The position numbers and the translations under genes are program-made. A stretch of DNA of 64,000 nucleotides, from NCBI GenBank assembly GCA_043800345.1, contig JAZDNB010000009.1, positions 27,340 through 91,339 on the forward strand. Direction: 5' to 3'. Each line of letters opens with the position of its first letter. Position 1 is the first letter of the stretch. Source of the stretch: Candidatus Omnitrophota bacterium. Its GTDB lineage: Bacteria; Omnitrophota; Gorgyraeia; VGKN01. Below are positions 1-40,400 of the stretch, in pieces. The notes beneath the pieces are model-generated. The model did not search any database, was not told the origin of the DNA, and was given only the letters and a program-made list of their open reading frames with translations.

Positions 1-245
1 TAGGGGTAAACATAGATACGAGGGCACCGCCAACGAGGCAAGCCATCGTAAAGCTCCTCGGACCTCTTTCTAACATCATCCTCCTTAGCCTATCCTCATA
101 CCTCCTTGCCAATACCCAGCTCTCAGGGTTCCTCGGCGCTCTCACTATCTGGGTGGTTATCTCTTCAGCGTTCAGCATCGTTGCCTCAGTACGCGGCTAT
201 ACTACCTATAAGACAGGCGACCTCTACGAGGCGGTAGAGCTGCTC
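1..245 (+). repeat. Copy 1 (3' portion only) of the hydrophobic module. The window opens inside this repeat.
   Basis: Encodes GVNIDTRAPPTRQAIVKLLGPLSNIILLSLSSYLLANTQLSGFLGALTIWVVISSAFSIVASVRGYTTYKTGDLYEA. Aligns to 12328-12575 and 14455-14700. Confidence 0.85.
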
Positions 246-3200
246 AGTCAGAAAGACATATCTCCACCAGAAGACACGGTATCAAAACTCGAAAAACTAC
301 CGGAAGTTTTGGTTTCTGCCCAGGATTTTATTAGCGGTGAACATGATGATAATATAGCGAATGATGTTAACACATTATTAGAATCGTATAAGTCTTTTCC
401 GGTATTGGCTGTTATAAGCCTTGTATTGGTACATCTACGTGCACAAGGGCTTAATAAAACAGAATTTTTAAAATCACCCATCGGAAGAAAATTATTATTG
501 AGCAACAGCCAGTTAGATTTCATTTTAGAAATAGCCCGCTTGGGTCTCATAGATAACCTTGAGCAAAAACTTGCCCCGGAGAATGAGAATGCCTTGCTTG
601 AGGCATTACAAAGGCTTTCTGCTATGACAGGAGGCCAAATTTCTATAAATGAGATTTTTGAAAGCATAATTATAGCTTTTAAAATTGAACAGATGAATTT
701 TGGTATTGAAAAAGGTAATTACCGTTCTTCTTTGATAAAAAGGTCAAGGTCTAAAGATAGACATGTTGAAATACCTCTTGCAACAAAGGGGTATTACAAG
801 TTTTTAAAGCGTCTAAGGAGAGAGAAGGTAAATAATATCGTTACCGAGAGATATGTAGCGATGATGGTAGATTTTGATGACACGATAACGCTCGATATGA
901 TAGCAGAGGAATTGAGAAAAGGACATAGGCTTGCCGTTAATACGGCACGAACGGCAGTAAATCTGTATTTGTTCCAGGCGTTACTTGATAAATATGGACT
1001 TACCGAGGAACAGAAAGGGTATCTCACCATATATATGGATATGGGAGCACGGAAATTTACTTATTCGAACAAACAATTTATTGAATCAGAAGAATTTAGG
1101 GCATATTGGTCTGATCATGAGCTACTGGGATACGGAGAAATTTGGGTTGCCCTGCAGAGTACCCTGGAAATGAACGGTTACTCAGGTGATCTTATTACGC
1201 AAACAGCTCCTTATAAATTATATGTTGATATAGGAAAAGATACACCAGGTTCTGTTGCAGAGTTAACCAAAAAGTCCGACTCTATCGCTCGGGACCTACA
1301 GAATAATTTAAGGAAACTTGGATATAATCTCACGGTTATAAGGGCAGGAGATTCAAAGATTATTATTTATCCTGCAGGTATAAATAAACAACGCGCAGCA
1401 GTAGACTATGCCTCATCCCTCGGAGTTTCTCAGGATAAAATTCTTAAACTTGATGACCGCGGGGCAAGCTGTTTTAATAACGGCTTCAGCCTGGTGATGA
1501 TGCCGGGTGCAATTTGGCTTGATGCGGATACAAGGACCGATTTTGCCATTGTTATTACCCCTTCTGATTTACAGAATGAACTTGGGGGACTAAAAAGAGG
1601 ATATGAGGCGACATCGTCTATCCTTGGAACATTTATTATCCTTTCACAGTTACCAGCAGGTACGGATTCGCAATTTATCTCTCTTGTTAAGGGGTTATAT
1701 TCGTTGGATAGAGAAGTGCGTGCACGTACCATACATATGTTAGCGCGCTATAATACCGAACTAGCTATCAGGTATTTAATCGCCTCATTATATGATGATA
1801 AGCAAACAAGCCAGGTAGCGCTTGATTATCTTATTAATTTGAATGTCGGCGACGGGACAGTTGAACGGTTATTAGTTGAAGCCGTAAATCAACCGGAAAA
1901 GTTTTTAGAATTACCGTATACTCAATGTGCTATTCAGAAGGCAAAGAAGAGATCAGCCTCCAGGGTGATCCGCGGATTAAGCCTTCAGGCATTAGCGCAA
2001 AGAGGTTTGGAATTTGTTGACAGACGATCGCTAGCAATCGATGTTCGTGAAATAATAGAAAAAACCCTTAAGACCGATCCGTGGACATGTGCCCAGGAAA
2101 TTTTGGTGTATGCGCAGACAGGCGCAGAAGGCGTAAAAGAATTTCTTATTGAACTGGCAGCACAGGAAAATGTAGAGATACGTGATGCAGCCCTACAGGG
2201 CCTCCTTTATTTGTTAACGGTTGATGATAAACCTTTCTTTTATAAGGCATATGAAAAATCACGTAATAAAATAATATTTGCATCTGTTGCGGGAAAAGTT
2301 TTTGCAGATGATTTAGACGGGTTTTTATCTATCTTAAAGAAAGCTGAAGATGCATCTGTGCGCAGTGCGCTCATCCGCTCACTAGTTTATTCAAAAGTAG
2401 ATAGTGAGATTATGGGGCAAATGCTGCTTGAGTGGGTGCAAGAAAACAGAGTTGATGAAAAAGAGATAATCGCCGTTGCTTTTATAGCAGGAGAAAGATG
2501 TTTACCGCAGCTAAGCAAACAACTTTTTTCTTATCTTTCAGCAACAGCAAGCGTCGAAATTCGTCTAGCAGTTACTATTGCCCTGCACCAGATTATATCA
2601 GTCTTGCCCGTTTCCCAGAATAATCTAAGAGACGACATAATCTCAGGATTATCGCTCGAAGCAGCTAAGACATTAAGTATTAATCCAGAGTTAAGCTCTT
2701 TTATTACCAGAAGTATCACCGGTTTGTTGGGATATCCTGATGTTTCTACTTTTCCCATAGAGAATTATTCCGAGAAGATGGTGAGAGATATAGAAAAGTT
2801 GTGCAGACAAAACGAATATATACTTTCTGTTCGCCTTGCACCTTCATCGCTGACCAAGGGATATTGGGTACCCGGTTCAGACATAGACCATATTAAAGTA
2901 TATCTTGACGCCCGTGCCGATGTGCAAGAAATTAAAACTTTAAAAGATGCGTTTGTAAGTATATTCAAGAGATACGGGGTATTTTTATCGATTGAACCCG
3001 TGAGAGTTGAAACGGTTACCCCTGATGCAATACCGTCTCCTCAGGATGAAAGTAAAGCCAAATTGGCATTATGGGATAACGGTGTTTTTTATTGGGATTA
3101 TGGAAGTATTTATCAGCTTGGTGAAGATTTTGAGAATTGGCTTTATGAAGGTAGATTTGTAAATCCAAAATTTGAATATCGTATCCTTATGATGTTCTAT

Positions 3201-6200
3201 TTGGGTTATTTAAGCAGGGAAAAAATTGAGCGTATACTCAAAGTCGGCCAGGTTCTTCCGGAAGAACTGGAAATTGTAAGAAGACGTATTCTTAGCACAC
3301 TGGATATACCTATTTCTGCTAACGCGCGCCGTGTATTATCATATCTGCATATTCTGACAATGGCAGGAAGTCTTACTGAAATTTATCCAAAATTGATATT
3401 GCCGGCATATCGTAGAGATTATTTTTTGAAAGGCTTGATTGAATTAGGGAATATCGGGCTGGTAACTTTGGATACCGAATCGGGAATGCTAACCACCCCG
3501 TTTTATCACTATGAAAGTAAGATACAGGTGGTTGATGCGTTACAAGAACCTGGAATCTTGAAATGGTTAAAGGCCCGGATGGAACCGGGGCTCTATGCAC
3601 GGGATATTTGCGTTATGATATCTTCAGTTCAAGAAGCCGACCTTGCTATTAATAAGGCATTAGAAGAAGGTTTACCTCAGGTGCAACTATTTATCTCCCC
3701 GGGTAAGGATTTTGATGCAAAACAGGTCGGACAGATATTAGATTTCATAGATAAACGGCGAGCAGAATTAGAAAATTTCCCAATCCTTGCAGGAATAAAA
3801 CTATCTATTACGCCTGATAGCGATATACTTTCGCTTAGAGAATCGGTAGGAATTGCAAACGGGCCTTTGGTAAAACTCTTGAGGGAAAAACATATGCGCC
3901 TTGACTGTATTTCTTTTTCAAATGTCCGCATCCCGTGGATAGACATTGCTACGCGTACCAATGGGTTGGAAATACTAAGACACAATCTTGACAGCCTCCA
4001 TTTTTTTACGTCCTCTGCCACTATCCATCATCTTGATATCGCGAGGATTGAAATAAGTGCCTCTGAAGTTGAAAAATTAGTTGACTTAATTGATGGGGGA
4101 AAGCTTGAACCTAATAAATTAGAGAAAATATTTGCTATGTTAGCAGAATTCGGTATTCAAGTTGAATTGCCCGAAGCTCGTCTTGGACAAGATAAGGTAA
4201 GTATTTATTTTGAGGAAGTAATCAAAAGTTATAATGCTCGAGCTCCGCCGTCTAGACAGATTCAATTTACGGATTCCTCGCGCCATACAGTAGCACTCCT
4301 CCCTGTAGTAAAACGGCTTGGTGTATTAGAAGAAACCTTGCAGCAGATTTTTGAATCACGTCGGTTGAGCGAACAACTCATAGCATATCTTGATTCATAT
4401 TTAACCGCCCATTATACCCGTTTTGATGGAGATCTCGAGGCCCTTATCACCTCCCTTATCGATTCCTATTCCTTAGAATTAAAAACAGACTTTTCTCAAG
4501 TAATATATACGGGTAGAGAAAAAGGCATAGATCACTCCCTCTGGAACGATATGCCGGAGGAATTACGCAGGGTACTTATAAGGCGTAAATTAGACGGAGC
4601 AGATATAAGTAAAGATATAGCGCATTTCCTCGGAAATATTAAACCGGAAGACATCGAGTGGTTTGACATAGAAGATTTTTCTGTAAGAACACGCCATATC
4701 TATAAAATAAATTATAAAATTCAAGTTAAAATCAAGAATGTTCCAACTCCTATCTCCGTCTTTGTTAAAATCACTACTTCTGCCGAAGAAACATTTTGGG
4801 GTGAAACTGCACAACTATTGGGTTTATCCAACCTAAGGGTCGTTGGCCTCCCCGAGAAAGGAAAAGGTCTCTTGCTTATCGAGGCAGGGCCCGGCAGGAC
4901 TCTTGATGACATTTCAGCCAATGATTTACAAAACCGTGATATTGCCAAGGCAGTATTCTCTGCGTTAGGCTCATATGCGCTCCATGATGTGCTTTCCATA
5001 GGAGATGCCTCTTTAGCCAATAATTTAGTTGGTGAAAATATCAGCAATATCCTCTCAATAGATCATGTTGAGTGCCTGCGTAATGAACTTAATATCGGAG
5101 TCCAGTATAAGGCCGATAGAAGGGGTTTGTATCTGGTTACAAAATTACGCGATACACTTAGCCCTGAAGATATCACAGAATTGCTGGTAGCCTATGAAAA
5201 GTCATATATAGCGTCATATATGCACATTTTAAAGAATGCAGATGATATAGAACGCCTTATCATTAAGTATTTTGGTCAAGATAGCGATGCACTGGGCATA
5301 TTTAGAAAAAATCTTTTGCTCGTAGGATCTGATATTTGCGGATTTTTTGATACAAGCGAGAAAATGATCCTTGCGGATATGCCGATAACCAAGGCAATGG
5401 AACATATCCGAAACAAAGTCACCGATCAGGATCAGGCCCGAATAACAGCGCGGGAGGTTATGAATGAAATGGGACTTACTTCGGAGCTCCATATCAAGTT
5501 AATCAACGATGCATTATTCTCGGAACTATCCATAAAGGATACGCTTAGCCAATTAAGAAGGGTCGATATCTCGCAGCCATCAGGTCAACTGGAAAACTGT
5601 GTTATGAAAATTTTACGTAGGCTTGCAGAAAAACAGCTTTTGCAGGAACCGGAAATAGTGGGGATGTTAGACAACATGATAGCGGAAAATGAGGAGATTG
5701 TGCAACAGCTTAGAGCCGGTAGAAGCACATATGTTCCGCAATTACTCTTAGATCATCAGAGCGTTGAAGATTTAACAAGAGCATTCAATGCTATGGGCAG
5801 TCTTTATGGACGGTTGAGATTTTATAATTGGCGGACCAAAATAGACGAAAGGGGAGGTGTAAATAGAGATTGGGATTTTGAACACGGCAGCATGGAAGAA
5901 TTTGACGAATATCTAAGAGAGAATAATGTCTACTGGGCTTATTATAACAGAACCCATTCCGGTGAACATAAGAGGGATCTGAAAGATCGCGTAAGCGGGC
6001 TTGAAATACCTATTTCCCACCAAAAGGAAGGATTACGCACTATAGCCGATGTTATTAAAAAGACGGTAATAGATTTTATACATCAAAAATACGGCGAAGA
6101 CCTGGACGTTGAAGTAATCAGTATCCGCGTCAACGGAAGCAGATTTTATAAATTATCCACTACTGATAAAGCCGCAGATATAGACAATGTAACGGTAGTG

Positions 6201-9200
6201 ACTGCCAGAAGAGATGGTCAGGAAATTCCGATACGGGATATTATATATGAACTTCCCCTCTCGGCCCGTATACCGGGAATTAATTTAACGGGAATGGCGA
6301 TTACAAGTTCCTATTATGTTAACGGACATTCGCACGATCCTCATACAATGCTTACCTACGTTTCATCTTTGAGATCAGGTATTCCTATAGTAGGTCCCCA
6401 TGCATATCAAAGTACTATGCCCGAAGATATACAACTTTTGGATGTGATTAATCTGATAGGGAGCGGTTCCGATTATCTAAGGAGAGGGCCGGGCTATTAC
6501 CGGAAATGGGTAAATAGAACTGCCGAAGTATATCTAGTACTTTTTAAACTGGGACTGCTGGAGAACTTTGACCTTAACGCCCATACTGCCATGATAGATA
6601 AAATTCATAATGCCATCATTAGTAACGATCAGAAATTCTTAAGTGAATTTCTTGCTTGGGCACAAGGTGAAGAAGAGCATTTGACCGCGCTTGTTATAAA
6701 ACGACTTGAGGAATATTCGCACAGAAGAAAGCTGGTCTTATTAAACGGATTTTATTCAACGGCTGATTCCGAAGAAGCATCTGCCTTACAAGATACCCTA
6801 AGAAGTTTAAATAGCGAGTTTGACGATATACAATCTGCGCACAAAGAGATTCCCGTAACAGAACATTATTGGAGCGGTTGGCATCATAGGTTGCACCGTT
6901 GCTATGATGATACGGCTTCACTCGAATCTCACAAAGAACTTTTGGCCGCAGAAGATAAAACATTTGATATCACTTTAGCGCAGAAAAGTCCATATGGAGA
7001 TATTTTAAATGCCCTTTTTGAACGTTATGCTTTAACAACCGGTATAGCCGGAATTATGTTTTCTTCGCAAGAGGCATGGGCATATTCGATTTATCTTGCA
7101 TTAGCGAAAAATCCACATACCCCCGTTACATTATTAAGACAAATTTATAACGTGGTAGAGGCCATGAAGGAAGGAGGGCGAAATGTGCTCGCGCCTTCCT
7201 CCGTCTTCTACCAGATTGAACTTGCCTTGGCAAACAATGTAAATATTGATACCAAACTGCTTAAAAAAATTGCAAATGCCAATTTACCTGATAGTGAAAT
7301 TGGTATAGCTGCACAAAAGACATTAAAAATTAGAGCAGCAGCCAAAGAATTGGCCAAAAGCAACAATTTGCTAATCGCCTATCGTGCAGCAAAAAAACTG
7401 CAGGATTATGGAAGTGTCGTGTCGCCCCTGCTTGTACGCATGATTAGAAATATAAATCCAAAAGATATGTTTACGCCTTTATTGGCAACCAGGATTTTGG
7501 GTACTGTCGGTGATGTAACGGCAACCAGTACTTTAATCGATTTATTAAACCAAGCGTCAAATCATTATTTGGGGAAAGACCACAAAGAAGCCCTGGGATA
7601 TTTTGCCGCAGAGGCGCTCGGCAATATTGGTGATGATAGAGCAATAACCGTCTTATTCAGTCATCTAGGATTTTTCCGATATGACGATGCAATAAGGAGG
7701 GCGACCCATTCGCCGGTTGCCTTTGCCGCAACGCAATCATTGCTTAAAATGAATAAAGATCCTGAAATGACCTCCGCTATTAATCAAAAAGTAATTAGGT
7801 ATATACACGATATTTTAACGTATGATGGAGATATGAATACAAATAACATGGAATATATAGAATTTTGCTATCGCAGCCAAAATATAGTGTACCTTTTAGC
7901 ACGCCTTGACATGGATAGACAGGAAAAAATAACCCTGTTAAAAAAGGTTATTGAAAAAACATCCGAGGTAATGATGCCGGATCTTCTGATGATAGAGATA
8001 ATGCATGAGGCAATTTCCGCACTCGGTGAGCTTAAGGCCGAAGAATGCGTGCCGCTTTTAATAGCGACTTTCTATGACAAACGTGCTCCTCCGGAAGTCA
8101 GAGCAGAAATTATCGAGGCGCTAGGAGATATTGGAACTACTGTGGCAGCAGAATTTATAAAAAATATTGCAGCGACACATGAAAAGAAACCCAAGCCGCA
8201 AGTAAATGTGGACCCGGAACGACTTGTTTATAATGCACTCAGCAGGACAATGCTTCGTTTAGATGCCCGCCAGCATAAAGTTACCGAAGACCACGGTTTA
8301 AAAATTTGGCATGCAAGTTTTCATGGATTGTATGATAGCGGCATCAGGGGGTTAGGTTTCCCCGATGGTGGCGGACAAATTTATTATCACATCTCAGTTG
8401 CTAAACAACTTGGCATGCTCGATGAAGATTTAGAGGTAAGGTCGCTTGTACGCGCAAGCGGTAGTCAGGATTGGGATATAAATGTTGATTTTGGTGCGCC
8501 TATTGACAGACTAAGTGCCCGTGCCGAATTAGACAGGATACCATTTGGCCCGGACGGCGTTATCAATAGGTATGACCTTTGGCACTTTATGGATGATTTT
8601 GACAGGAATATGACAAGATATATGGAATATGCCGGTATGCCGGATGTACTCCATATACATTCAGCTGATGCAGGAACTCTAGCGCTCGCACGATGGGCAA
8701 AATCCCATAATATCCCTGTCGTATTCGTTGTTCACTCTCCGGGACTCGTTAAACTCGAAGCCCTTACCGCATCGCGCTTACCTATATTACGAACAATAGG
8801 TGAGGATCCGCGCAGAGAATTCTTGGGGCTTAAAGAATCAATGGAATTAATAATGAGAATCGAGGCTGAAAATGAATTCTTGGAACTCTCCGATAAAGTC
8901 GTAACCTATACTGATCATGAAATTCGGGAACAATGGAAAGGCTATCCTGCCTATGAAGCCGCAATTAGAGCAAATAAGTTTTACACAATATACCCGGGTA
9001 TTGACCATGATGTTTTTAAACCCACCTCTGCCTTGACTCCTGAGGAATTGGAACGGACGAAACCTGTCAGAGACAGGATAATCAACGAGATAAGAAGGCA
9101 GATTAAAGAGGCAGGTATAATAGGGCCCGTATTTTCCATAGGGACTCTGGCTCGATTAGTCCAGAGGAAGAATTTTGAAGGTTTGGTTGAATCCTGGACA

Positions 9201-12200
9201 CAGTCAAGCGTACTGGTAAATAATAGCGTTATATTTATAGCGGGTGGTTCTGCGGATGTGCTTATGAAAGGGGAGACAACCGAGGCTCTGCGCGGAACAG
9301 AAAAAGAGATTTACCGCTCAATGGTTGAAAATGCTCGTAGAGTTCAGACCGAAGACGGACAGGACGCATCTAAACGGTTGATATTCTTAGGAAATTTAGA
9401 GCATGAGACCGACGTACCCGAATATATGCGTATTCTTGCCGATGGTATCCCGCAAGAAGGAGTAGAGCACCCGCGGCCCGATCATCCGGAGGATTGGGCG
9501 GTGTATCCTTACGGCGTATTTATCAATCCGGCTTTATATGAACCGTTTGGCTTTACACTTCTTGAATCAGCTGCCTGCGGTGCCATACCGATTATGACCG
9601 CTAACGGTGGCGCTATAGAAGTTATCGATGAAGCTGTAAACGGATTTATCGTCAATCCTTCCGCACCCGAGAGTATCAGAAGAGCATTGCTCACCGTATT
9701 TTTCTCTTCCAATAGACAGACGATGAGTGAGGCGGCTATAACCAATGTAGAGCGTAACTTTTCATGGCCTCGACATGCAAGGGAAACTTTAAAGGTATAT
9801 AGAACCGTTACGGGAGAAGAAACGGAGGTAGCGGAATCCCTTGTCCAAAAAACATTTGATTATTATGATTCTTTTATAGCAGCGCCACAATATGTTGTGT
9901 CAGAAACTACTTTTACTCCGGAAGCGAAGATAGATGTATTGTTGGTTGAACCGCAGGATTTTGTAGACACGGCAGTTGCAATAGGAAAAGATATAATAGG
10001 CAGGTTCTCCGATCGCAGTTTAAGAGAGAAGATAGAAGAATACCGAAAGAGGGAAGTTAGAGAAAGAGTAAATCATGAAATCTTGAGAGCAGAAAGTATT
10101 TTCCAAGAGGCAGAGCGTATCAGGAGTGAAAATCCGGACAGCAGGGGTGCAGAAGAATTTGTTAAGAAAACCATTAGTTTGTATGCCCAAGCAGAAAATA
10201 TATATGCGAAGATCGGCGTGGCATTAAGATCTCCCGATGATATTATATCAAGACAGCAACAAATAGCACGGCTTAGAGAAAGCTATATCGTTACCTCAGG
10301 CTATGAGGATACAAGGCCTGATCAAATATGGTATGTTACCTGCTGCGACAGAGATATCGAGCCTCTTCTAGGGAGTTATCTTGAAGAATTAAAACTGTGG
10401 GGTTTCGGAGGAGACAGGATATATGATCCTATAGAGGGAGGAACTTATTATAAAAAAGTTGAGATAGCCATTTTTGAAGATAGCACTGACGAAACGATTA
10501 TTAACAAAAATTTAGCCATAATTGAAAAATATAGAAGTCTGGGGTTGAAAATCAGGTATTGCGGAATCGAAGATTCTTTAGTGAAAGATGCTCCCGAACT
10601 CGGCCCAAGAGACCGTGTTAGAAAACAGTTATGGTATACAAGCCAGAGAGATATTATCAGGTTTTTTGGTAAAGAGCGTGCATTAAGACTGCTGGGGATG
10701 TCGCCAGAGAAATTTGATCTGCCGGCAGAAAGACAGATTACAGAGACAGGGCGCAGAGGTTATGGCAATGCGAGAGAAGGGGTGCGGTTATGGGCGTTAT
10801 ATGAATATAATCGTATGCCTCATAATGTGCTTTTGGGTAGCATAGACGATGATGAGCCTATCGGTCAAATAATTCAGTCAGCAAGCGGCTACAAGGTACT
10901 AAGGCATGCAACTAACTGGTTTAATAACTATGGGAGAATGTTTGAGCGCTATCCCGACATTTCCATACTCTCCGGTAACGTTACGGGCGATAGCGCAATC
11001 GAAGGCGTTGCCCCAAATATTTTTGTTAAGACCTGCAGCCACTTATTGACATTGCTTGACTTTGCCTCGTTTCGTTCGCCACATGATGCTTGGCCTGCTG
11101 AAGACGATATAAGAGAATTATATAGAGCCCAGGCACCAAATCCTGCTTATGGGCTTAATCCCACAGCGCATGCGCATATTAATGAAAATATGGCAGCGCG
11201 GAAATATGCTCAGGCAACCAAGAAACAGTATCGTTTCCCAATCCCAGAACAAGGGCAACTGACGTTAGGTGAACAATTGAGGATGATTTTAGAAGACATA
11301 AATTCTGTATATTTTGGAAGATGGCTTACGAGGCCTATTCTTTATAGACATGGGGGAGTAGTAATCGGAGCCCAAGATGAGCCCATTCCTTATATAAGAA
11401 AAGCGCCTGAAGGTCCGGTCATGGGCGGCCTTCTTTTAATGCGGAAAGATGCTTTTGTCTCATGGCCTTTGCCAAAAGGCGGTTTTCATGATTTACGTTA
11501 TGCAAGTCCTACACATCTGCGCCTACTCCCGAAGTTCGGATTCCCCGTGCATGGAGTTTTTATGCCTGCGCGTCATCAAAGGACACAGGAATATCGTTTT
11601 GATCTAATGCAGAGCGAGGAAATGCTCGATTTTCAAAAAAAGATAAATTATGGATTGGAAGATGAAATTGGTAACAGGTTATTTTTTGCAATGCTAGATT
11701 TTTATCATATTGATAGCGCTGAAGGTTTACAGACCATGCCGTTTGATGCATCGGTATTTGCTCGAGAACACCCGGAGATTTACGATAGAATTGTGAAAGA
11801 TGCCGTACGCACTCAAATTACAAATATAAAAGAAATTAATCGGCTTGTCGGCTTACTTAAGGCGATGTTTAACCAGCAATATTGGTGGCAACTGGATTCG
11901 AATTTTACGCAGGCCATAACAGAGTTAAAACGATTTGTAGCTATAGCAGAGGCAAATTATGGAACATACGATATTACGGATCTTAACGTACGGATTAGAC
12001 ACTATATGGAAGAAACAGGATTTGCAGCTTTAACCGCATATCTTAACGGAATGCGTGACGGGATTGAGGTAGTGCATTCTGTTATTTCAGAAAAGATTAC
12101 ACTTCCTCCGGTAAAGTCTGTTTCCGAACTACCTATATCGGAACCGCAAACCCAATCCACCCTTGCCAATTTCTTCACCTACGCCCTGAAAGGTAAGTTT

Positions 12201-15200
12201 ACCGTCTTAAACTGGATAACGAGGATACTGGGACTACCCGCCATAGTTATGGAAGAACTCATCTCCCATTATCTTATCGGTAATTTCTTTGCACGGGTAC
12301 ATCTCCAGAGCCCAACCTTGAGCTATGTAGGGGTAAACATCGATACAAGAGCACCTCCTCTGCGTCAAGCCATCGTAAAGCTCCTCGGACCTCTTTCTAA
12401 CATCATTCTCCTTAGCCTATCCGCATACCTCTTATCTTCTACCCATCTTTCCGGGCTCCTTAGCGTAATTACCGCCTGGTCTTTAGTTGCCTCAGTACTC
12501 AGCATCGTTGCCTCAGTGCGCGGCTACGCTACCTATAAGACAGGCGACCTCTATGAGGCGGCGCAGCTCTTAAAAGGGAAATACCCAAGACTTATTTCTT
12601 TCCTGGGAATTGAAGAAAGCCGCCTGCTTAGCACACTTTCTAAAATTTCTATTACGTGTGCAATAGCGGCAGTCGTTACCCTTTATTCATTCTTCCGTGT
12701 TAATATCTTCTCCTCTTATACGCGCCCTATAGTCGGAGCGGATGTTTTTATATCTTTCCTGGCCGTTGCTGCATGGTTAATGTGGGTCCGCGAAATCTTT
12801 AATACTATATTTAACAGGGCATTATACATCTTGCGTAAGGGAATTCCCGAACTTACCAGAAGATCTCTTGTTGTTCTTATTGCTACAGGCATTATTGTTA
12901 TGACAAGCGTACTGGCTCCTTTCACCCCGACACTTAACTCAGACACATCTTATATGGCTAGTACGAGTACCCCCCTGGTTCAAAAAAATAATTTTGCCCA
13001 GCTCCCCAGTCAGCGCCTTCCAATAATTCAGGTGACGCCGGAGCTATATCGTGCGCCCGCAGCGCAAGAAGCACTGAGACAGATCACAAAAGAAGAACAG
13101 ACGACCCTTAACGTTATTTTCTCCGAATATGTTGCCCTAAAGAATACGCTAAGAAATAACGGGATAACACAAGAAGAAATCAATGCGCAGGCCGCCCGTT
13201 TTCTTACATCTCAGCTTAGCGCCAGGTGCCCAAGGCTTTATCCTCTATACCGGGAATTTGAAAGACTGTGTACGCGCTATGGCGAAGAAGGGCGCGTTCT
13301 CTTAGCGCTTGGTGCCGGAAGGGATCCTATTTTTGCCCCCCTTATCTCATTTTTTTCCGGTTATCTCGGATTTGGAAAGTATATCAAAGGCGAAGTTCCT
13401 ACTCATGCGGCATTAGTCTCATTAACAGGAGAGGGTAGTCCCATCATGTATGAGATGATACCGGGAAAAGACGTACGCGCTACCTCATTGATCGAATTTT
13501 TCATGCGGTATCCAACCGCGCAGTTATATCTCTTCCCGAAGACCGATACGACGTTGTTTGACGAATTATCCGTTTATTTACAACAACAGGTGGGGGCTAA
13601 GTCAGCATTCGGATATTTCAGCTGGGTTAACGGAAGATTTTTCGGAGGTTATTGCAGTGAATTTATTTATTCAGTGCTTATCAAGATATTTGGAAGTCAT
13701 TTTTCCATAGCACTTCCCGCATATCCACCTACAAACGGATGGTTGTTTTTTAGTCCTTTTGTGATGGGCTCAAAGATCATCTCGCCTCTGCAGCTGGGAG
13801 GATTAACAATTGACGGTAAGCCGCTCCAGCTTATATTTGAAGGTCCCGGATTTAGCGAGACTGTTGCTGCTGCCTTAGTAAGAAATATAGGTAACCTATT
13901 TATATGGGCAGGAAATCGCCTCATCAATGTAGTTAACAATACTGTCAGTCCGGTCTTCCAGCAGGTCCTGTTGTTTGTAGCAACAGGCGTTATACCTTTA
14001 CTGGTATTAGCAAAGAGAAGATTATTTTCATCCCGCCCCGCGCAAGAAACAACAAATGAGGCAGAAGCCGAAGGGCTAACTCTTCGAGAAAAATTAGAAA
14101 TAATCAGCGGAGTCTCCTTCATAGAGATTTTAGTAATTAAACTTTTATCCAACTATGTCGCCATCCCCCTTGCAATAGCGATACCGCTTTTGGCTTCTTT
14201 CATTTTATATGCAGCAGTAAAAAGAATCCCTCTTGAAACACAGGAAGATGCGCGGGATATTGATAAACGCGATACTACCCAATCCGCCCTTGCCAATTTC
14301 TTCACCTACGCCCTGAAAGGTAAGTTTACCGTCTTAAACTGGATAACGAGGATAGTGGGACTACCCGCCATAGTGATAGAGGAGGTCATCTCCCACTATC
14401 TTATCGGTAATCTCTTCGCACGGGTACGTCTGCAGAGACCGACCTTAGGCTATGTAGGGGTAAGCATCGATACGAGGGCACCGCCAACAAGGCAAGCCAT
14501 CGTAAAGCTTCTCGGTCCTCTTTCTAACATCATCCTCCTTGGCCTCTCCGCATACCTCCTTGCCAATACCCAGCTCTCGGGGCTCTTGAGCGCTCTCACT
14601 ATCTGGGCAGTTATCTCTTCAGCGCTCAGCATCGTTGCCTCACTACGCGGCTACACTACCTATAAGACAGGTGACCTCTATGAGGCGGCGCAGCTACTTA
14701 GGAAGACCAAAAAGCAACTTGAGCTGTCAGCAGATGATGAAATAATGCTAGGTACCATGACTCACGGGTGGGGTACCGGCATAAGATGGATGGTAGAGAA
14801 AGAGTCGATACGAGACCTGTGGACAATATCCAAACAATTTGAATTCCAGTTTGGCAATCTAAAAAAACGTTTTCTAAAAACCGAACATGCAAAACTATCT
14901 CCCTATGAACAGAAAATTTTCGATAAATTGGGAGAGCTCTACGTAGCGCTTACCGCATATAAACCTTCTTCGGTAACAATAGGAAAAGCGCTGGAAGGAA
15001 TTCTCAGCGAAGCAAGACGTCAGGAAGGAATTGACATTGCCGAACTCGGGGCTGCCCTAACAGAACTAGAGCAACGTTACGCAAATATTGAGAATGAATT
15101 TAAGCAACAGAAAACCCATGAAGAAATCGCCGCTAACCTCAAACAGGCAATGGCAGCGGCGCTACGTGCTATGATGCCCGGAACCCTGCAAGAAGAAATC

Positions 15201-18200
15201 ACAAGCCATCCTTTCTGGGGCAGGGCAATAGGATTTATGGTAGAGCATTATATTCCCGTAAGAGATCCTCGATATGTGGGCAGGCCCATCCAGGAACTTT
15301 ACCTCATCCTTCAGGAAACCATTAACACGTTATTTACCGAATACCATTACAAACAAGACGGACAGTATGAAGATAGCTATAAAGAAGTCAAGGCAAGAGC
15401 CAGAGAAAACGCTCTGCTTGCAGTAGGGATTATCCGTCCGATACTGAATGAAGTTTTTCAAAACGGCCCTCAAGTGGTTATCGGCGAAGATGAAAATCTG
15501 CGGCGTATCGTTACAAGTTTAGAAAATCAAAAACGGCATCTTACAGAACTTGACTATCAGGAATATATCGCACTTGCGCCTGAAGAAAGAAAATCAAGGG
15601 AGCCGGTTATCACCCGCATGGTCGAAGAAGAACGCAGCAAAAAAATGCATTGGCTTGCGTGGCCTGGACAGAATGAGTTCATCCATGAATTATTTATGGT
15701 GCGTGCTGAAGTATTAATCGGCGAAGATGCAAATTTGCACCACAGGTTTGCAAACTTAATAAGACAGAAACGGCGTCTTGCAGAACTTGCCTATCAGGAA
15801 TATATCGCACTTGCGCCTGAAGAAAGAAAATCAAGGGAGCCGGTTATCACCCGTATGGTCGAAGAAGAACGTAGCAGAAAAATACTTTGGTTTGCCTGGC
15901 CGGGACAGAATAAATTTATCCATGAATTATTTATGCTGCGCGCCGAACTGGAGACAGTGTATCTGTTAGCAATTGCCGGCAATACGATGGATTTTGGAGA
16001 CCAAAAGTTTGTCGCGCGCATTGAACAGGCACAGAAAGAAGGAAAAAGCAGTTTTGACTTTCTGCTTGAAGATGTGGTGAAGATATTTGAAGACGGCCTG
16101 AGTGCTCCTCATAACGTGGATGAAATGTTGGCAGATTTAGTAAAAGGAAGAAACCTCTTAGGAGCCAGACAAAAAAGAATGGGTGACGATTTTTCAGATG
16201 AATATCGTCCGAAGATTACCGTCCTATACGATAATGCGGGAGAGGATATACTGGAATTACTGCACGTTGAATTTTTATTACGATTAGGATTTAACGTGAA
16301 TATGGCAGGAAGGGCACTTCCCGTAATAAACGATGCTACGGCCGATGAATTACGAGATATAGTTACCTGTGTATCATTCCCCGACTATATGGACCGCGTG
16401 GACAAGGCCCGGAAAGCGCTGGGGATTAAAAATGACGCTGCCTGGCGCCAGCTTACACGGCTCAGAGGCGACTTCAACGTGAATTTTAGGATAAGACAAA
16501 GATGTAAGGCATTATCAAGCGGCTCTCGTCTCTACGGAACCGTTCCTGCGCAAATGAGCGAGGAATGCAAAAAAGAAATAGCAGAGTCCTTTATGGTTAT
16601 CGGTTTTGGCCAGGGGAATTTTGAAAGCGTATGGCCGGTATTATGGACACGGCCGTTTTATCATGTCCTGATGCTTAAGACCGCGGCACGGCTTGGAAAG
16701 ACGTTTTCCGACCATTTTAAGGATATGAGCAGGATTATCCTCTGCAATCCGGCGACAAACCGCGAAGAAGAAGAAAAGGCGGAGCAACAGCTGGCGGTAT
16801 CGGCAGGAGGTCTGAAGGCGTTAAATGCCGACGATCCAAGAGTTATAGCCGTGCTTAACGCAATGCGTGCCCACTTCGGAGAAAGGCTTCCAAGCTCGTT
16901 ATCCAATATATTTATCAGGGTCGAAAATTTTATTCCCGGCGGTGTAGTTGGCGAGACGCAGATAGCTATGGCGGCAGAGCGGGCAGTAAAGAAGATGTTC
17001 GGCAAAAACGTGCTTATCGGCCCTGACGAAGAGCAGCTTAGGCTCTTAGGGCAGGCGGGCAATGAAGATATGTGGTTTGTGGTGCTGAGCGGTAAGTACT
17101 TATATATAGGAGATAATACCCACATAGGACCGAATTCCATAGTGGATAATAGCCGGCTTGGCGCTAATTGTCTCGTGGTAGATTCAATGCTGGATAATAC
17201 CTCGCTAAGCGCCGGTACGACCGCAAGGCGTTTAATAAACCGCAGGGGGATTTTATCAAGAGGCCTGAAACTTGAAGATTATGGGGAGATTATGGAGCAT
17301 GGCAGCATTGAGCCGCTCTCGGCAAGAAAGGTGTTTCTGCGCGAGTTACGCAAAAAAGGAGTTACGATAATTGCCCCCTGGCTTACCTATATTGATTCCT
17401 CTGTCACCGCAGATCAGATAGAAGAAGGCGTAGTGCTGCTTCCCGGCGTAGTTATCAGGCAGGATGATGAGGCCAAAGGAAGCGTCCGCATAGGAAAGGG
17501 ATGCGTTCTTGGTTTGGGCGCAAAGATAACAAATACCGTTATAGAATCTTCCGTAGAAAGGCCTACCGAGGTTATTTCCTCATCATTAATGGATTGCCAT
17601 GTTGGAAGCGGTATTAAGATGACATTGGAAGAGCTAGAAAGAGAATCGATCGTTTCCGGCACTTTAAAACCACAGGAAGAACAATTACCGGTCGGATTAT
17701 TATTTGATGAACAGGGTAGCATAACAGGAAGACGTTACAGGATCAACCCACATTCTGTTTTAGAGACAGTATCTAACGAGGAGTATTACCGCCTAAGCCA
17801 AGCCGCCATGAAGGAATATCGGCAGGACTTAAGAAAAAGGCTTGCCGATAGCAGGGAAAAGGCTGAGGAGCTCGCCAAAGAAAAGGGAAGGCCTGTGACA
17901 GCGCGTAAGAGGAATAATGTAACACGATCAATAGAGTTTGTATTATCGCTTGCGCATCTGCCTCAGATATTGGCAGAGCGGTACGTATATGATTGTTTGT
18001 CAAAGACTACAGCCGTTTCTCCCTTGCAAAGGAGCAAGGAAAGGTATAACCGGGCGGCTTTTTGCGAACATCCCTTTGCAGATGATAATGAGACCACATA
18101 CTATTCATTCTTAAGAAGAGAACTCTATAAGATACCGGATGAATCAAAACGTCTTATATGCGCCTTAAAACTTGTTGCATTGGGTAATTACTTTGACCGG

Positions 18201-24200: not shown

Positions 24201-27200
24201 TTTAAGGATAACACCGACGATATACGGGAATCCTCTTCCCTGTATATCATAAGGGATCTTATTGAATCCGCCAAAGCAGCCGGTATTGATATAACAATCA
24301 GGGCCTATGACCCTAACCCGGGCGCATGTCATAATACGAGCTCAAGAACTATAGCCCAGGGAGGGCTTAAAGAACTTATCGACGAAGGAAGCGTCATAAT
24401 ATGCGACAATATCGAAGAGTCGCTTGAAGGCTCTTATGCGATGGTAATTGCCACGGAATGGAAGAATTGGTCAAGGCAGACAGGCAGACCTTTTGGCTTA
24501 AATGATAAGAAAAATCTAAGATACATAGAGGGACGTTTAAAAGGCAGGCTGATATTTGACGGAAGAAACCTCATCGACAAACCGGCACTGCTGGGGACAG
24601 GTCTTACCTATCACTCTGTAGGTCGGCCCGTCTATTACGGCAATTACATTAAAAATTTTATAAGCTCGTTCATAAATCTTTTTAGGCAATGCACCTTCTA
24701 TGGATATGTAATATACTATTGCCTCTCGACCCCCGGATATCGCAGGTTATTATTCAAGAAGGAAGGTCTTGGCTTTACCCTTTGGGAACTTGGCAGACTT
24801 TCAGCGCTTTATTTGAAAGCAACCTTTGCCTATATCATATATGAAGTTGCCGAGAATAAAGGAGCAAACGGCGACGAAGTGCTTAAGGGAATGGGTTATG
24901 ACAGGCGTATCGGCCCCGAATATTTTAAACCAACTCCGGGTAGAGGAGGCCCCTATCTGCCCACGGCAACGAAACTCCTGGTCCAGATAGGAGAAGATTT
25001 CCTCAAACGAGAAGACATTCCCGACGTTACCGATAAACAAAAGCAGCTTCGAGCCAGGGTAAGAAATCTGGAGTTATTAGCAAGCATCGATAAGGCCAAT
25101 GAAGGCCAGGTTATCAAGGTTATGGCGCGCTTAAGAACAGCCCTCGGCGTTGAAAAGGTTGCCGGCGGAAATATAGCCGTATTAGGTACCGCTTATAAAG
25201 GCGCGGCATCTTCTATAGAAGGTTCTGTCGCCATGCGCATTATCACAGACCACCTTGCCTATTGTAGTAGTATAGTAGTATTTGAGCCTGATCCCGAAGC
25301 AAGGGCCAGGGCAAAGAAGATGCTTAAAAATTCCACCAATGTCATTTTTGCCGAAAACATGGATGACTTAAAGAACAAGGCAAGGGGGGTCGGCGGGTTA
25401 GATGCACTCTTAATTCTCACTGATAATGAGGAATTTAAATTGCTCGATACCTCCGGTATTAGAAAGCGTACCGCCAAGATGGTCGTATATGATACCTGTA
25501 ATGTGACAGATCCGGCGAATTTTACGGACAAACCCCATGTTATTTATATCAGAACGGGAAGACCCATGTTTATGGGAATGGAAGTGCTTCCAAGAAACGG
25601 AAACAGAGGCTCGCCTGTTTTGGCGCGAGCAGCCGAAACCCAGCACTCTCTCTTGGTGTCAACCCTCTATAATAACTTTAATTCTGCCGGCACGATTATC
25701 ACACGGATTGTATGGGGCGTGCTGTGGCTTACTGCATTAGTGACAGTCGGGATAAGCCATGAGTTTACCCATATGATATCCGCCCTTAGCCTGTCCCTGA
25801 AAGTAACAAGAAAACGCGAATTCTACAAAGGCAATATTTCGATTGACGGACCTCCCCAAAGGGTTAATATTGCAAAGGCCCTTGCCCCGCTTGCCGGACC
25901 GTTTATCATCCCGCTTTTCCTAACCGCCGTTTCTTTACTGTTAAATGTTCAAATCGACATACCCAATTGGATAAAAATCCTCTACTTAGGTTTTAGCGTA
26001 GTATCTTTCATATATGACCTGTCGTCCGAAGGAGACCTTGCCGAACTATACCGTCCCCTTAAAGGGAGAGTTCAGAATTTCGCCTCAAAGTTATTCGGGG
26101 CCGATGCGAGCCTATTACCAAAAAAGATAGGATTAGCCGTAGTTATTTTCGGAACTATAGGCCTGCTTAATATTGTTTTAATGTGTATTTTTCTCCCATA
26201 TCCCGATGTATTACTTATTCTCTGGGGTAATTTTGGTTTTGGTGTTTTGCTGTTCATTTTTGCAATATTGGGATGGCTGGATACTCTATCCGAACGCATA
26301 GAAAAATTCTATTACATGCATCTATGGCAAAAAGCGCTCCCCTCATACTATACACACGAGGCTTGGAAGGTGGCAAAGGAAAACAGGGTTATTTTCCCAT
26401 ATCTACACGGAGAGGGAAGCAGGGTATCGGAACCGAATACGTACAAATATTTTACCCTTTTCAAATTCGGCGATCCTGAGGCAATAAGAGAATATTCGGA
26501 ATATATGGCGAGCCATATTCGCTATGACATTTCGTCGGATATAGAACCGGAAGAATCAGAATATTATGATTTTTTTGACCCCGAAAAATGGGTTGTATTA
26601 TCCAAGGTTCACCCGGTTCCACCATTACACTCGACACAAATGCTCGGACGTTTATTAGCAGAACGCCTTAAAGTTAAACTCGTAAGCCTGAACGAGCGCA
26701 GTTCTTTCGGAAACTACTCTAAACTTTCACTGGATGAGCGAGAAAAAGTAGTTTATGGGAATTTGGTTGTAGAAAATCCAGAAGAAGTGCGCGGTAAAAA
26801 TGTCATCATATATGACGATGTGAGTATAAGCGGTTTTACCCTGATGGAAATGGCCCGTGCGGCATTTGCGGCAGGCGCCAGGTCCGTAAGAGCCTATACG
26901 ATGTTTGATCCGAAAAATGACCCGAAGTTTGAAATAGGGGCATATAGATATCTGATGTATGAACATCCTGAACTTGTACTACCTATTTTGCAGAGCGATA
27001 TGTCCATAGCGCAGACAGCCATAAAATATCTGATGCGTTTTGCAAGCGAATCGCCCGATGCCTTTGAAAATTTGATGAGACAGGTGAAAGATGAGCGACT
27101 CAGAGAAATTTTAGATCTCGTTACGTCATACCTGCAAATTACATCAAAGGAAGATACGCTTAATCCTACCCCACTCTTTAACATCATTACATCGTTACTT

Positions 27201-37400: not shown

Positions 37401-40400
37401 GACAATTAAGAATAGATCCTGCCGATTTAATGAAAGATTTACGGGATGTATATTTTGATGTGATTAAGGCCAGGTTAAGAACCGGGGGCGGTATAGAAAG
37501 CGAAACCACTGGCACTTCATTCAAGGTATTTATTGATACCGCAGGTCTGGTAATCAAGGTTCCTTTGGCGTCGTTTAGAAAAAAATTTGAAGATGAATTT
37601 ACCTCATTTTTCAATACCATTCTTAAAAAGAGGTTGGGCGGTATTATGGTACCGGGAGCTATAGTTAATTTAGGCACTGGCGGTTTGGGGCTTCATGTAA
37701 AACGATATGTAGGAAATGAAGAGAGGGAGCTGGAATGGGTTCTTATTCAGAATAGAGTAGAGCCACTGCGTACAAGGATTACAAGACTGGTTGCTCATGG
37801 TAACATAACCAAAGCCAAGCGGTTAATAGACCAGTATTTTGCACTTCAAAAAGAAATGTGGGCGCGGGGAGTTTTAGACACAGATCCAAAATTTATGGAA
37901 AAATACGGGCTCATGATTATTAACGGAGAAGAACGCTTGGTAGTGATCGGGGTAGACGGTTTGACTGCCAATGCCGATTTGTATGATCAGGAATTATATA
38001 GAAAAGATACTATACGTCCTGTTCATAAGAATCTCCCCTCTGTTGAACTTTTACAATATTATTACAAACAAGCAAACCAAATGCCATCTAAGGAAGATTT
38101 TATAGCGCGTCATTTTGAAACAAGAGAAGGAATGAAAAGAGCGCATACAGTGCCCGACATATCGGATATTGAAATAGCAAAGGAGCAAATGGGCCTTATT
38201 GTCTCAAGAGTAAAAGATGCTAAGATAAAAAGATTAAGAGAACTTTTTAGGACCATACGTTACGGCGCTGACAATCCATTTATTTACTGGGTGAAATTAT
38301 ATCTGGATACTATGTACGCCGATGCACCCCAATATAAAGTTGTAAATTCCCTCTACGAACAACTATTAAAATCTCCGAGTCTGATAGGGGCAGGACGTAT
38401 TGACGTTACATCGATAAGCGACTTAATTAAGGCTATGCCTCAGGCTGCTGAGTTGACCGCTTCTGAAATATACAATATTGCTGATGATATAAGTTCTTAC
38501 ACTCTGCTTCCAACAACAGAAAGTAAATCGGTAGCAAGCGCTCCTTCGTCCATCACAGCCGTCTCATGGCCTAATTTTATTGCGGGGGCATTAGCGGCAG
38601 GAATTATAATCATCCTGCAATATATGAATGTACTCCCTTACCAATATCTCGGCCTTATAAGCTTTATTTATTTTATTTCATTTTTGATTATCCACGAGCT
38701 TGGCCACTGGAAAGATACCGGATTTAGGAAATTTCCTCTCGGGGAACTTTTCAGTAAAGAAGGTATCTCCATACCGGGCTCGGAGGGCCTTTCGGGTATC
38801 AGGATTTCTTTTGCTTTCTTTATCGCCTCCATAGCGTTATTTGCGCTCTCTGCGATTTTCTTACCCCATTACGCAATATATCTTCTGCCCGCCGTTATCA
38901 TAAATTTTATCTATGCTGCTTCAATAGGAGATTGGAAAGATACACTGGCTAAAGTTCGGTTATCAGAACTCCAAAAGGGTACGGTAACCGCAGAAGAAGA
39001 TATTACCTTTTCAATAACAAGGGATTTTGCACAGAAATTTGTGCAAGGTGTCTATGATAATCTTGTGCCCGATGTTCTTAAACGCGTACGGGAAGGCGCA
39101 AGATTAAAACCGAGCATAAAAGAGGACGTGTTTAGTATCAATCCGATGGATGTCTCGGAGAATAGGCGTCTTATGAACAAGGCGCTTGATGATCTAATTG
39201 AGCATGAAGGGGACAGTGTTGAATTTACCATCCTTATGGGAGGACTGGCATCCCGCATGAGGAAAGAGCCTCCCGGAGAGCCTACTCAGGCATTGTTGCG
39301 GGATTATGTAACATGGTTATATAGCCAAGGGTTTGACCCCTTCGCATGGCTTCAGGAACGTTTGGGTATCTCGATAGATAAAAACGATATTAATGCACTG
39401 GCCTTAAATTATCCCACGAAAGGCATAATGCCTGTCGGCGTAGACGGGGAAGGCAGGTTTATCACCAAGGTCGGGGAATTTGCTATCGGTATTCGCAGGT
39501 TACAGGAACTTGTGAATGAAGAACGCAGAAGGCGCGGTAAGGCCGGGAACCCTATTAAATTCAAGATTATTTTAGCCGGAAACGAAGAGGCATATGATGC
39601 GGTTATGGATTGGGACCTTAGGGTCAATAATTACTATGGCCTTGAGCCCGGTCAATTTGAGCCTGCCAATGAGGTATTAGGGCGTTCTTTCGTATCCACG
39701 CCGGAATATGTGATGCGATATGCAGAAAATTTTGGCGGCCGTGACAGCGAAAGGTTTAAAAAAGCCATGCAGGCCGCAGAAGAGAGAAAAGGGGAGGTAC
39801 TTCCGGAGCTGACACCCTGGGGTCATGCTGAGTTTTTAATTCAGACCATCTCAAGCGGCCGCATTATAGAAAAAGCGAGGCGCGGTGCCTTTGCAAACTT
39901 TGTGCGCAATGTTGATAATAGCGGTGCAAAGATTGACTGGATGTGGCTTGTGGAATACGGAAAGGCCCTTGAGGCTCGCGAGCAGGGCAAGGAAATCGGC
40001 TTGGCCCTTGAAGTGAGCCAGCGTCCGCAGGGCGCAAGCGGAAAAGGCGGAGGATATTTTAAACTCGAAAAAGATGGGGAAACCCGCGATATTGTCCTTG
40101 AAGATTCGATATTGCAGATGGTGCGGAAGAATATCCGTCAGAGCGATTGTGCGCAGCTTGAAGAGAGAGGGTTTCATGTTGTTGTCGTTAGGGAGTATGA
40201 TTCAAAAATTATACCGAAGCTTGAGACACAAAAAGCTATGGTGCTTGATGCTTCCCAAGAACTTATTGACCTTCTTCCGGAAGAGATTATAACTACTCGC
40301 GGTACGCGATTAACTAAAGATAAAGTTTTAGAATGGATAAAAGAATACGGGAACACGCTCCCGCTCAACAAACGGCTTGAGATTTATTATAACCCGCAGA

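Follow-up and report, generated by a model that had tools for sequence, protein, structure and literature searches.

A recurrent three-helix membrane module resembling the site-2 protease core in giant genes of Candidatus Omnitrophota

What kind of protein domain recurs, largely unchanged, within a single bacterial gene of more than 34 kb, and what keeps its copies alike? The question is raised by a stretch of 64,000 nucleotides (nt) from a Candidatus Omnitrophota bacterium (GenBank assembly GCA_043800345.1, contig JAZDNB010000009.1, positions 27,340 to 91,339), which was analyzed as a whole and is called the window below. It carries two giant open reading frames (ORFs) on the plus strand: g1 (nt 3–34280), with 11,425 codons in the window, no stop and its 5′ end upstream of the window, and g2 (nt 34427–59404), which encodes 8,325 amino acids (aa). 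A preliminary description had drawn attention to a hydrophobic module that recurs three times inside g1. We confirmed that this repeat is a genuine protein domain and found it used at least four times in g1. The explanation that we consider reasonably probable as a whole is that of a mostly degenerate membrane module, derived from a site-2 protease (S2P), homogenised by gene conversion and serving to anchor the giant protein. What the sequence shows directly is the repeat with its borders, rarity, mosaic identity and order of motifs; S2P descent, lost activity, anchoring and topology are inferred from it.

Copies, borders and relatives of the module

The full unit comprises ∼432 nt, corresponding to 143 aa. 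Copy c1 (nt 1–252) is partial, as the window starts within it, and provides the C-terminal 83 aa: the end of a hairpin, a helix with the motif GPLSN, the third transmembrane (TM) helix (TM3) and the terminal GDLYEA, with the Asp codon at nt 219–221. Copies c2 (nt 12150–12581, aa ∼4050–4193) and c3 (nt 14277–14708, aa ∼4759–4902) are both complete and carry the motifs EELISH (nt 12252–12269) and EEVISH (nt 14379–14396), respectively. A repeat search reproduced the alignments reported before: nt 1–252 match nt 12328–12579 (78% identity) and nt 14455–14706 (89%), and nt 12150–12449 match nt 14277–14576 (87%). DNA identity among the three copies thus amounts to 78–90%, far beyond chance, and all of them lie in the g1 frame, with spacings of 12,327 and 2,127 nt that are multiples of three. 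Over the 82 shared codons, nucleotide and amino acid identities are 89 and 87% for c1–c3, 78 and 76% for c1–c2 and 79 and 79% for c2–c3, respectively; across the full 432 nt c2 and c3 are 83–84% identical. The 5′ extension that had been noticed in c2 and c3, estimated at about 170 nt with some 70 of them identical, measures 178 nt and includes an exact run of 68 nt (12160–12227 = 14287–14354). Each copy shows three hydrophobic helices, as judged by hydropathy and by AlphaFold secondary structure, and ends with RGY(T/A)TYKTGDLYEA, in agreement with the first account.

The borders of the module are sharp. Identity between c2 and c3 climbs from a background of ∼25% to 63–100% at nt 12150/14277 and drops back after nt ∼12580/14707; the background level is reached within about 30 nt on either side, and the flanks are unrelated. 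No direct or inverted repeats flank the borders. A mobile-element origin was rejected on the grounds that neither a target-site duplication nor inverted repeats are present there, and an RNA element behind the 68-nt exact tract was rejected in the absence of any Rfam match and of tRNA; the window holds no rRNA either.

Besides these three copies, g1 holds a fourth and divergent one. Copy c4 (nt ∼25650–26117, aa 8550–8705), which carries HEFTH at nt 25758–25772 and the terminal motif GDLAEL, was found by BLASTP and a local hidden Markov model (HMM) and is ∼30% identical to c1–c3. A Smith-Waterman comparison of c3 with c4 against composition-preserving shuffles gave z=7.9 (P~2e-5); judged from these sequences, the kinship of c4 to the other copies is real but distant.

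Outside the window the module is rare. When 1.84 billion representative proteins were searched exhaustively with an HMM, no more than three relatives came up. The closest, P0001 (MBM3253204.1), is a fragment of 2,779 aa from a metagenome-assembled genome (MAG) of Candidatus Omnitrophica and contains two copies. P0002 is a complete protein of 4,384 aa in which VanY, M15 and beta-lactamase domains come after a single copy, and P0003 is a complete protein of 667 aa with a c4-like copy. Word-indexed protein searches with c3, with an 8-sequence alignment of the module or with the membrane module of g2 (see below) returned nothing, pattern scans of GTDB species genomes, JGI metagenomes and IMG/VR gave no further relative of the module, and PDB sequence searches with module profiles yielded no match. 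Two of the relatives have an extra HExxH motif in a non-hydrophobic region upstream of the module, at aa 898 of P0001 (RHEILHW; locus L002) and at aa 877 of P0002 (YHEMLHL; locus L003); the parts of g1 and g2 in the window hold no such soluble HExxH.

The locus that encodes P0001 (L002; NCBI VGKN01000052.1, 8,337 nt, open at both ends) also bears on the reliability of the assembly. That the copies constitute an assembly hazard, as had been proposed, is plausible, given that this independent Omnitrophica MAG contig likewise begins inside a module copy. Relative to the module, this contig starts 16 nt further downstream than the window does, which suggests a common site of assembly breakage within the module. 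Together with runs of as many as 68 nt that copies share exactly, these two starts could be taken to indicate that repeats were mis-joined or collapsed and that the true number or order of copies differs. Collapse or mis-joining is nevertheless unlikely: the copies differ from one another at 10–22% of positions and are set in flanks of their own, and the reading frame runs uninterrupted across every junction over 34 kb. In addition, the ORF of L002 independently contains two copies ∼2,200 codons apart, and exact repeats of at most 68 nt fall short of the usual length of final k-mers and reads. We therefore give an artefactual copy number or order very little credence.

Resemblance to the site-2 protease core

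The layout of the module starts with an amphipathic N-terminal helix (TQSxLAN), followed by a first TM helix (TM1) with the motif EE..H (motif 1), a basic, predicted beta-hairpin, a second TM helix (TM2) that begins with GP(L)xN, TM3 and a helix that begins with Gly-Asp. The motif after the hairpin reads LGPLSN in c1–c3 and GPISN or GPVSN in the relatives. The Gly-Asp pair is invariant across copies and relatives and is located 92–100 residues past motif 1, compared with 94 residues in S2P. Distances from motif 1 to GP and from GP to Asp are 42–49 and 46–54 residues in the modules and 44–47 and 47–50 residues in SpoIVFB and the S2P of Methanocaldococcus jannaschii (mjS2P), the sequences of which were verified against the PDB before comparison. 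Both hhalign and Smith-Waterman alignments place the LGPLSN-type motif on AGPL of these two proteases. In layout the module thus corresponds to the M50 enzymes SpoIVFB, mjS2P and RseP: a TM helix at the position of the zincin motif, a beta-hairpin predicted to be cytoplasmic, an (A/L)GPL helix and a third helix followed by the presumed position of the Asp ligand.

An AlphaFold model of c3 of moderate quality, computed from the 8-sequence alignment, reached a predicted local distance difference test score (pLDDT) of 70.9 and a predicted template-modelling score (pTM) of 0.57. When this model was compared with 350,542 PDB chains using Foldseek, ranks 1–3 were taken by SpoIVFB (8vjl, 8vjm) and mjS2P (3b4r), with E values of 0.16–0.54, and the best PDB matches overall were SpoIVFB, mjS2P and RseP. 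At the sequence level, Smith-Waterman comparisons with mjS2P gave z=5.7 (P~4e-4) for c4 and z=5.8 (P~3e-4) for P0003, both assessed with shuffles. The alignment of P0003 is collinear across ∼123 residues and pairs EELSQ with HELGH, LGPL with AGPL and NIISAFLPGGD with NLIPAFPMDGG. Aligned to the S2P pair by hhalign (E 0.062), c4 has its HEFTH on HELGH and its PLAGP on AGPL. Finally, three HExxH motifs occur in the 19,750 aa of g1 and g2, compared with 0.46 expected; each of them closes a TM helix of one of the repeated membrane modules, namely c4 and both copies of the g2 module. Since the order of elements and their spacing are those of the S2P catalytic core and the predicted fold appears to resemble it, we infer that the module quite probably descends from it.

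Several observations weigh against this reading. Pfam and NCBIfam searches with all copies and relatives gave no match, M50 models included, even at E<=10. The structural model has a thin basis of eight aligned sequences, and the AlphaFold model of c4 is poor (pLDDT 57), so that its structure matches are meaningless. Compared with S2P by sequence alone, the type-A copies, among which c4 is not counted, reach only a weak P~0.025, and an HMM built from type-A copies without c4 scores c4 at no more than 3.2 bits. The Asp in c1–c4 lies just past a hydrophobic helix, without the NxxPxxxxDG context. The module also lacks PDZ and CBS domains, and it is repeated within one giant multi-enzyme polypeptide whereas S2P is a stand-alone enzyme. 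No one test of S2P descent is decisive and the family HMMs fail, yet the tests agree.

The missing profile match, together with structural scores below the usual thresholds of significance, could also mean that the copies are plain anchors: a three-helix TM bundle peculiar to this lineage and not descended from a protease, whose likeness to S2P is a coincidence of geometry and short motifs. Such a coincidence would have to account for four different S2P structures at the top in two independent structure-comparison programs, for the shuffle-controlled similarity of c4 and P0003 to mjS2P (P~3e-4), for a motif spacing that matches S2P to within a few residues and for the fact that, within 19,750 aa, HExxH is confined to precisely the position so aligned. 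Nor would a simple anchor be expected to conserve acidic residues and a His in a hydrophobic helix. We consider plain anchors unlikely for these reasons. Two other families were rejected. The EExxxH of c2 and c3 resembles motif 1 (EExxxR) in a TM helix of the CPBP/Abi proteins (PF02517, M79), but the module lacks FxxxH and HxxxN/D, has a single His and does not match PF02517, and the fold search favours S2P over Rce1-like structures. The spacing of the Aspzincin motif (GTxDxxYG) does not fit.

The catalytic state of the copies appears to vary. The HExxH that defines M50 is absent from the TM helix of the c1–c3 type of copy, which reads EELISH in c2 and EEVISH in c3, and we therefore do not file the module as a member of M50. 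Motif 1 of the relatives is EELFH in P0001, EEVVAH in P0002 and EELSQ in P0003; among the g1 copies only c4 has a canonical HExxH (HEFTH). The best alignment of c3 with c4 places the second Glu of EE on the first His, Val or Leu on the catalytic Glu and the His on the second His. The change from HExxH to EE(x)xxH in three alike copies and in relatives elsewhere would make these modules pseudo-proteases or give them a non-canonical polar or metal site. Accordingly graded from sequence, the EE(L/V)ISH copies are probably pseudo-protease membrane anchors, and most copies are non-canonical and probably inactive, or equipped with a different polar or metal site; c4, which keeps both HExxH and the Asp, could be catalytic. 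EE, H and D are kept in a hydrophobic context across relatives that are only 35–60% identical, which argues against a featureless anchor. The image of ‘membrane staples’ between enzyme blocks in the preliminary description holds in so far as the copies are intragenic repeats of about three TM helices, but it misses the retained EE..H, GPLSN and GD motifs and the beta-hairpin. A functional parallel may be drawn to the iRhoms and Derlins of the rhomboid family, protease relatives that have kept the membrane fold without canonical catalytic residues; for iRhoms, a non-catalytic action in the membrane has been proposed (PMC3149277). The parallel concerns function alone; these eukaryotic, stand-alone proteins belong to an unrelated fold and class (serine rhomboids as opposed to zincins).

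A second membrane module is present in g2, in two copies on the plus strand: nt 38540–38970 (g2 aa ∼1372–1514) and nt 48245–48680 (g2 aa ∼4607–4751), which are 60% identical at the amino acid level. Their DNA repeat of 188 nt (38612–38799 and 48317–48504) is 88% identical. The module consists of a TM helix closed by a canonical IIHELGHW, a hairpin and two more TM helices, the last of them ending in GDWK, and hhalign relates it to SpoIVFB and mjS2P with E 2.8e-4. Its layout is analogous to that of the g1 module; neither hhalign (E 0.11) nor Smith-Waterman comparison (P>0.05) demonstrates homology between the two.

Probable gene conversion and exchange of blocks

Ratios of nonsynonymous to synonymous divergence (dN/dS) of 0.25–0.33 among the copies indicate purifying selection. 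The copies had been called near-identical in DNA and recently duplicated or subject to ongoing conversion. The first of these terms is too strong for dS values of 0.21–0.60. With dS of 0.25 for c1–c3 and 0.54–0.60 for the pairs with c2, the duplications were not very recent either, and it is gene conversion, with its mosaic pattern of identity, that remains the likely part of the proposal. The 68-nt exact run shared by c2 and c3 (nt 12160–12227) has P=5e-5 if differences are placed at random, and a series of 32 consecutive third codon positions without a difference has P=4.5e-4. Synonymous divergence between these two copies is uneven, with 0.21 in the N-terminal 60 codons and 0.60 in the C-terminal 82 codons. 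Copy c3 is itself a mosaic: it is c1-like at nt 20–170 of the shared part and c2-like at nt 171–237, with a maximum chi-square breakpoint near nt 170 (P=0.012). Moreover, the copies cluster by genome, as amino acid identity is 73–86% within the window and 72% within P0001 but 45–62% between the two. Uniform divergence would not lead one to expect mosaic identity to this extent, which fits concerted evolution by gene conversion. In combination, the exact tract, the third-position run, the breakpoint, the uneven dS and the clustering by genome favour gene conversion, and we consider it likely that the copies have been homogenised in this way; intragenic conversion under purifying selection would then keep them alike.

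Clustering by genome is predicted equally well by independent, lineage-specific duplications without any gene conversion, and differences in the flanking blocks preclude any assignment of positional orthologues between the window and P0001. Plain duplication and divergence would, however, not be expected to produce a three-fold difference in dS between the halves of the c2–c3 pair or the switch of c3 from c1-like to c2-like. Separate duplications are thus a possible but doubtful explanation, and we retain gene conversion as the preferred one.

Beyond the copies themselves, whole blocks appear to have been rearranged. Residues 1141–2308 of P0001 are homologous to g2 aa 1520–2708 (window nt ∼38985–42550) with 45–50% identity and are located between two g1-type modules, and P0003 joins a g2-like N-terminus (aa 1–139) to its c4-like module. 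It follows from these arrangements that blocks and modules have recombined between lineages or giant genes. Past the block shared with P0001, at g2 aa ∼2590–2720 (window nt ∼42194–42586), the sequence MLTQGRTLRDVLHKISS is followed by three TM helices and later by IDVTGPP. This segment may be a decayed g1-type module, to judge from a faint likeness, without statistical support, to the TQSxLAN helix and the IDxxxPP hairpin. As all copies are in frame, enzyme blocks could be swapped or lost at them without a break in the reading frame, and the copies would thereby serve as junctions at which the giant gene is rearranged.

Topology and role within the giant proteins

Hydropathy and the positive-inside rule were used to judge topology. 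Basic residues prevail in the hairpin loop, with ratios of Lys and Arg to Asp and Glu of 5/1 in c3, 3/1 in c2 and 6/2 in c4, and the loop between TM2 and TM3 is short and uncharged. In P0002 a signal peptide is followed by the module, a very basic loop, five hydrophobic segments and the periplasm-type VanY and beta-lactamase domains. This order and the basic hairpin fit a three-TM module with its N-terminus outside and its hairpin and C-terminus inside, as in S2P; the hairpin and the GD helix would then lie at the cytoplasmic face. Further hydrophobic helices adjoin the modules of g1, all identified by hydropathy on the plus strand: three directly 3′ of c2 (nt 12621–12935, aa 4207–4311), two to three directly 5′ of c3 (nt 13938–14234, aa 4646–4744) and three directly 3′ of c4 (nt 26091–26300, aa 8697–8766). 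These counts of three, two or three, and three helices do not yield a consistent alternation of cytoplasmic and periplasmic exposure, as the parities derived from hydropathy within g1 are contradictory. Were every nucleotide-dependent enzyme block cytoplasmic, opposite orientations would be required of c2 and c3; with the N-terminus of all modules outside, block A (HEAT and GT4) would be periplasmic.

In the explanation that we favour, the chief task of the degenerate modules would be to thread the giant polypeptide through the inner membrane and hold it there between enzyme blocks. Other TM clusters are present in g1 as well: hydropathy reveals clusters of TM helices at intervals along both giant proteins, with more than 35 hydrophobic segments combined. 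Alternatively, the modules could be active and cut neighbouring TM segments, thereby freeing the enzyme blocks. Candidates for such self-processing would be c4 and the two g2 modules with HELGH, perhaps joined by the EE..H copies by way of a Glu/His/Asp metal site. Cleavage would dissolve the contradiction in topology parity; in c4 and both g2 modules HExxH and the Asp downstream of it are retained and predicted to lie on the same face of the membrane, and the two to three extra TM helices that adjoin each g1 module are possible substrates. Post-translational cleavage of Omnitrophota giant proteins has already been proposed from C39 and S8 domains; neither these nor SecA_DEAD were detected in the portions of g1 and g2 inside the window. 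Against self-processing, the first His and, judging by the best alignment, also the catalytic Glu are missing from most copies, P0003 reads EELSQ, and no conserved cleavage motif was identified. In addition, S2P enzymes such as RseP and SpoIVFB normally require prior site-1 trimming of their substrate. We regard active self-processing as rather improbable. A more elaborate version, in which the giant proteins are membrane-tethered polyproteins with S2P-type proteases of their own, is a speculation to which we attach similarly little weight: the copies with intact HExxH (c4 and the two HELGH modules of g2) would cut TM segments beside degenerate copies and release enzyme blocks, and the degenerate copies, as pseudo-proteases, would dock or present substrates and double as in-frame recombination junctions.

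The proteins that carry the modules consist of enzyme domains tiled along both g1 and g2, as seen with Pfam. In g1 these are accompanied by HEAT repeats and comprise GT4, ARMT1-like, UDP-glucose dehydrogenase, PRTase, GHMP kinase and PfkB kinase domains; g2 contains PRK, a starch-synthase GT5, an alpha-amylase and two metallo-beta-lactamase-fold domains. With more than 11,425 aa, and thus beyond 10,000 aa in a single ORF, many TM helices and many enzyme domains, g1 encodes a giant membrane-associated multi-enzyme protein. Other internal duplications are found in both genes. A tandem duplication of 237 nt (nt 15469–15942, g1 aa 5148–5316; 84% nucleotide and 69% amino acid identity) lies just 5′ of the ARMT1-like domain and was not reported by Tandem Repeats Finder at score 80. 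In g2, aa 2173–2583 correspond to aa 3423–3832 (window nt ∼40943–45922) and aa 5165–5580 to aa 6519–6923 (window nt ∼49919–55195), the latter pair containing the metallo-beta-lactamase-fold domains; amino acid identity is 30–37% across both pairs. Downstream of the giant genes there follow a TolC/OEP-like gene (nt 59755–62454) with AMIN and UVR motifs and a gene for an HlyD-type membrane-fusion protein (nt 62500–63852). Genes of these two types, directly 3′ of the giant genes, are parts of tripartite export or type I secretion systems; the end of the window is reached before any ABC or RND partner of the pair could appear.

Giant TM-rich multi-enzyme proteins have been described for Candidatus Omnitrophota before (West-Roberts et al. 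2023, 10.1101/2023.11.21.568195; Nielsen and Lui 2026, 10.64898/2026.06.07.730766). The proteins of the window share with them ORFs of more than 8,000–11,000 aa, internal TM helices, tiled domains of sugar metabolism and kinases (GT1/GT4, starch synthase, HEAT) and domain repeats within one polypeptide, and the closest relative of the module is itself encoded in an Omnitrophica MAG. Both surveys remark on the abundance of TM helices and consider cleavage speculatively; a domain that processes or anchors the proteins from within the membrane is named in neither, nor is an M50, site-2 or other intramembrane-protease module mentioned (10.1101/2023.11.21.568195; 10.64898/2026.06.07.730766). A full-text literature search that paired ‘site-2 protease’ with Omnitrophota returned no paper. 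The giant multi-enzyme context is therefore known already; what is new is an orphan, mostly degenerate domain family that resembles the S2P core and is reiterated in giant polyproteins.

The module offers a concrete handle on the wider question of how proteins of 10,000 to 150,000 residues are produced, inserted and put to use in bacteria: it occurs with intact and degenerate motifs in the same locus and can be searched for across giant genes. For the evolution of such genes, in-frame modules homogenised by conversion may act as junctions for the exchange of blocks, with which the g2-type block between g1-type modules in P0001 is consistent. The module is also a plausible cause of contig breaks in giant genes, and it provides a testable idea of how giant proteins may be anchored or cut.

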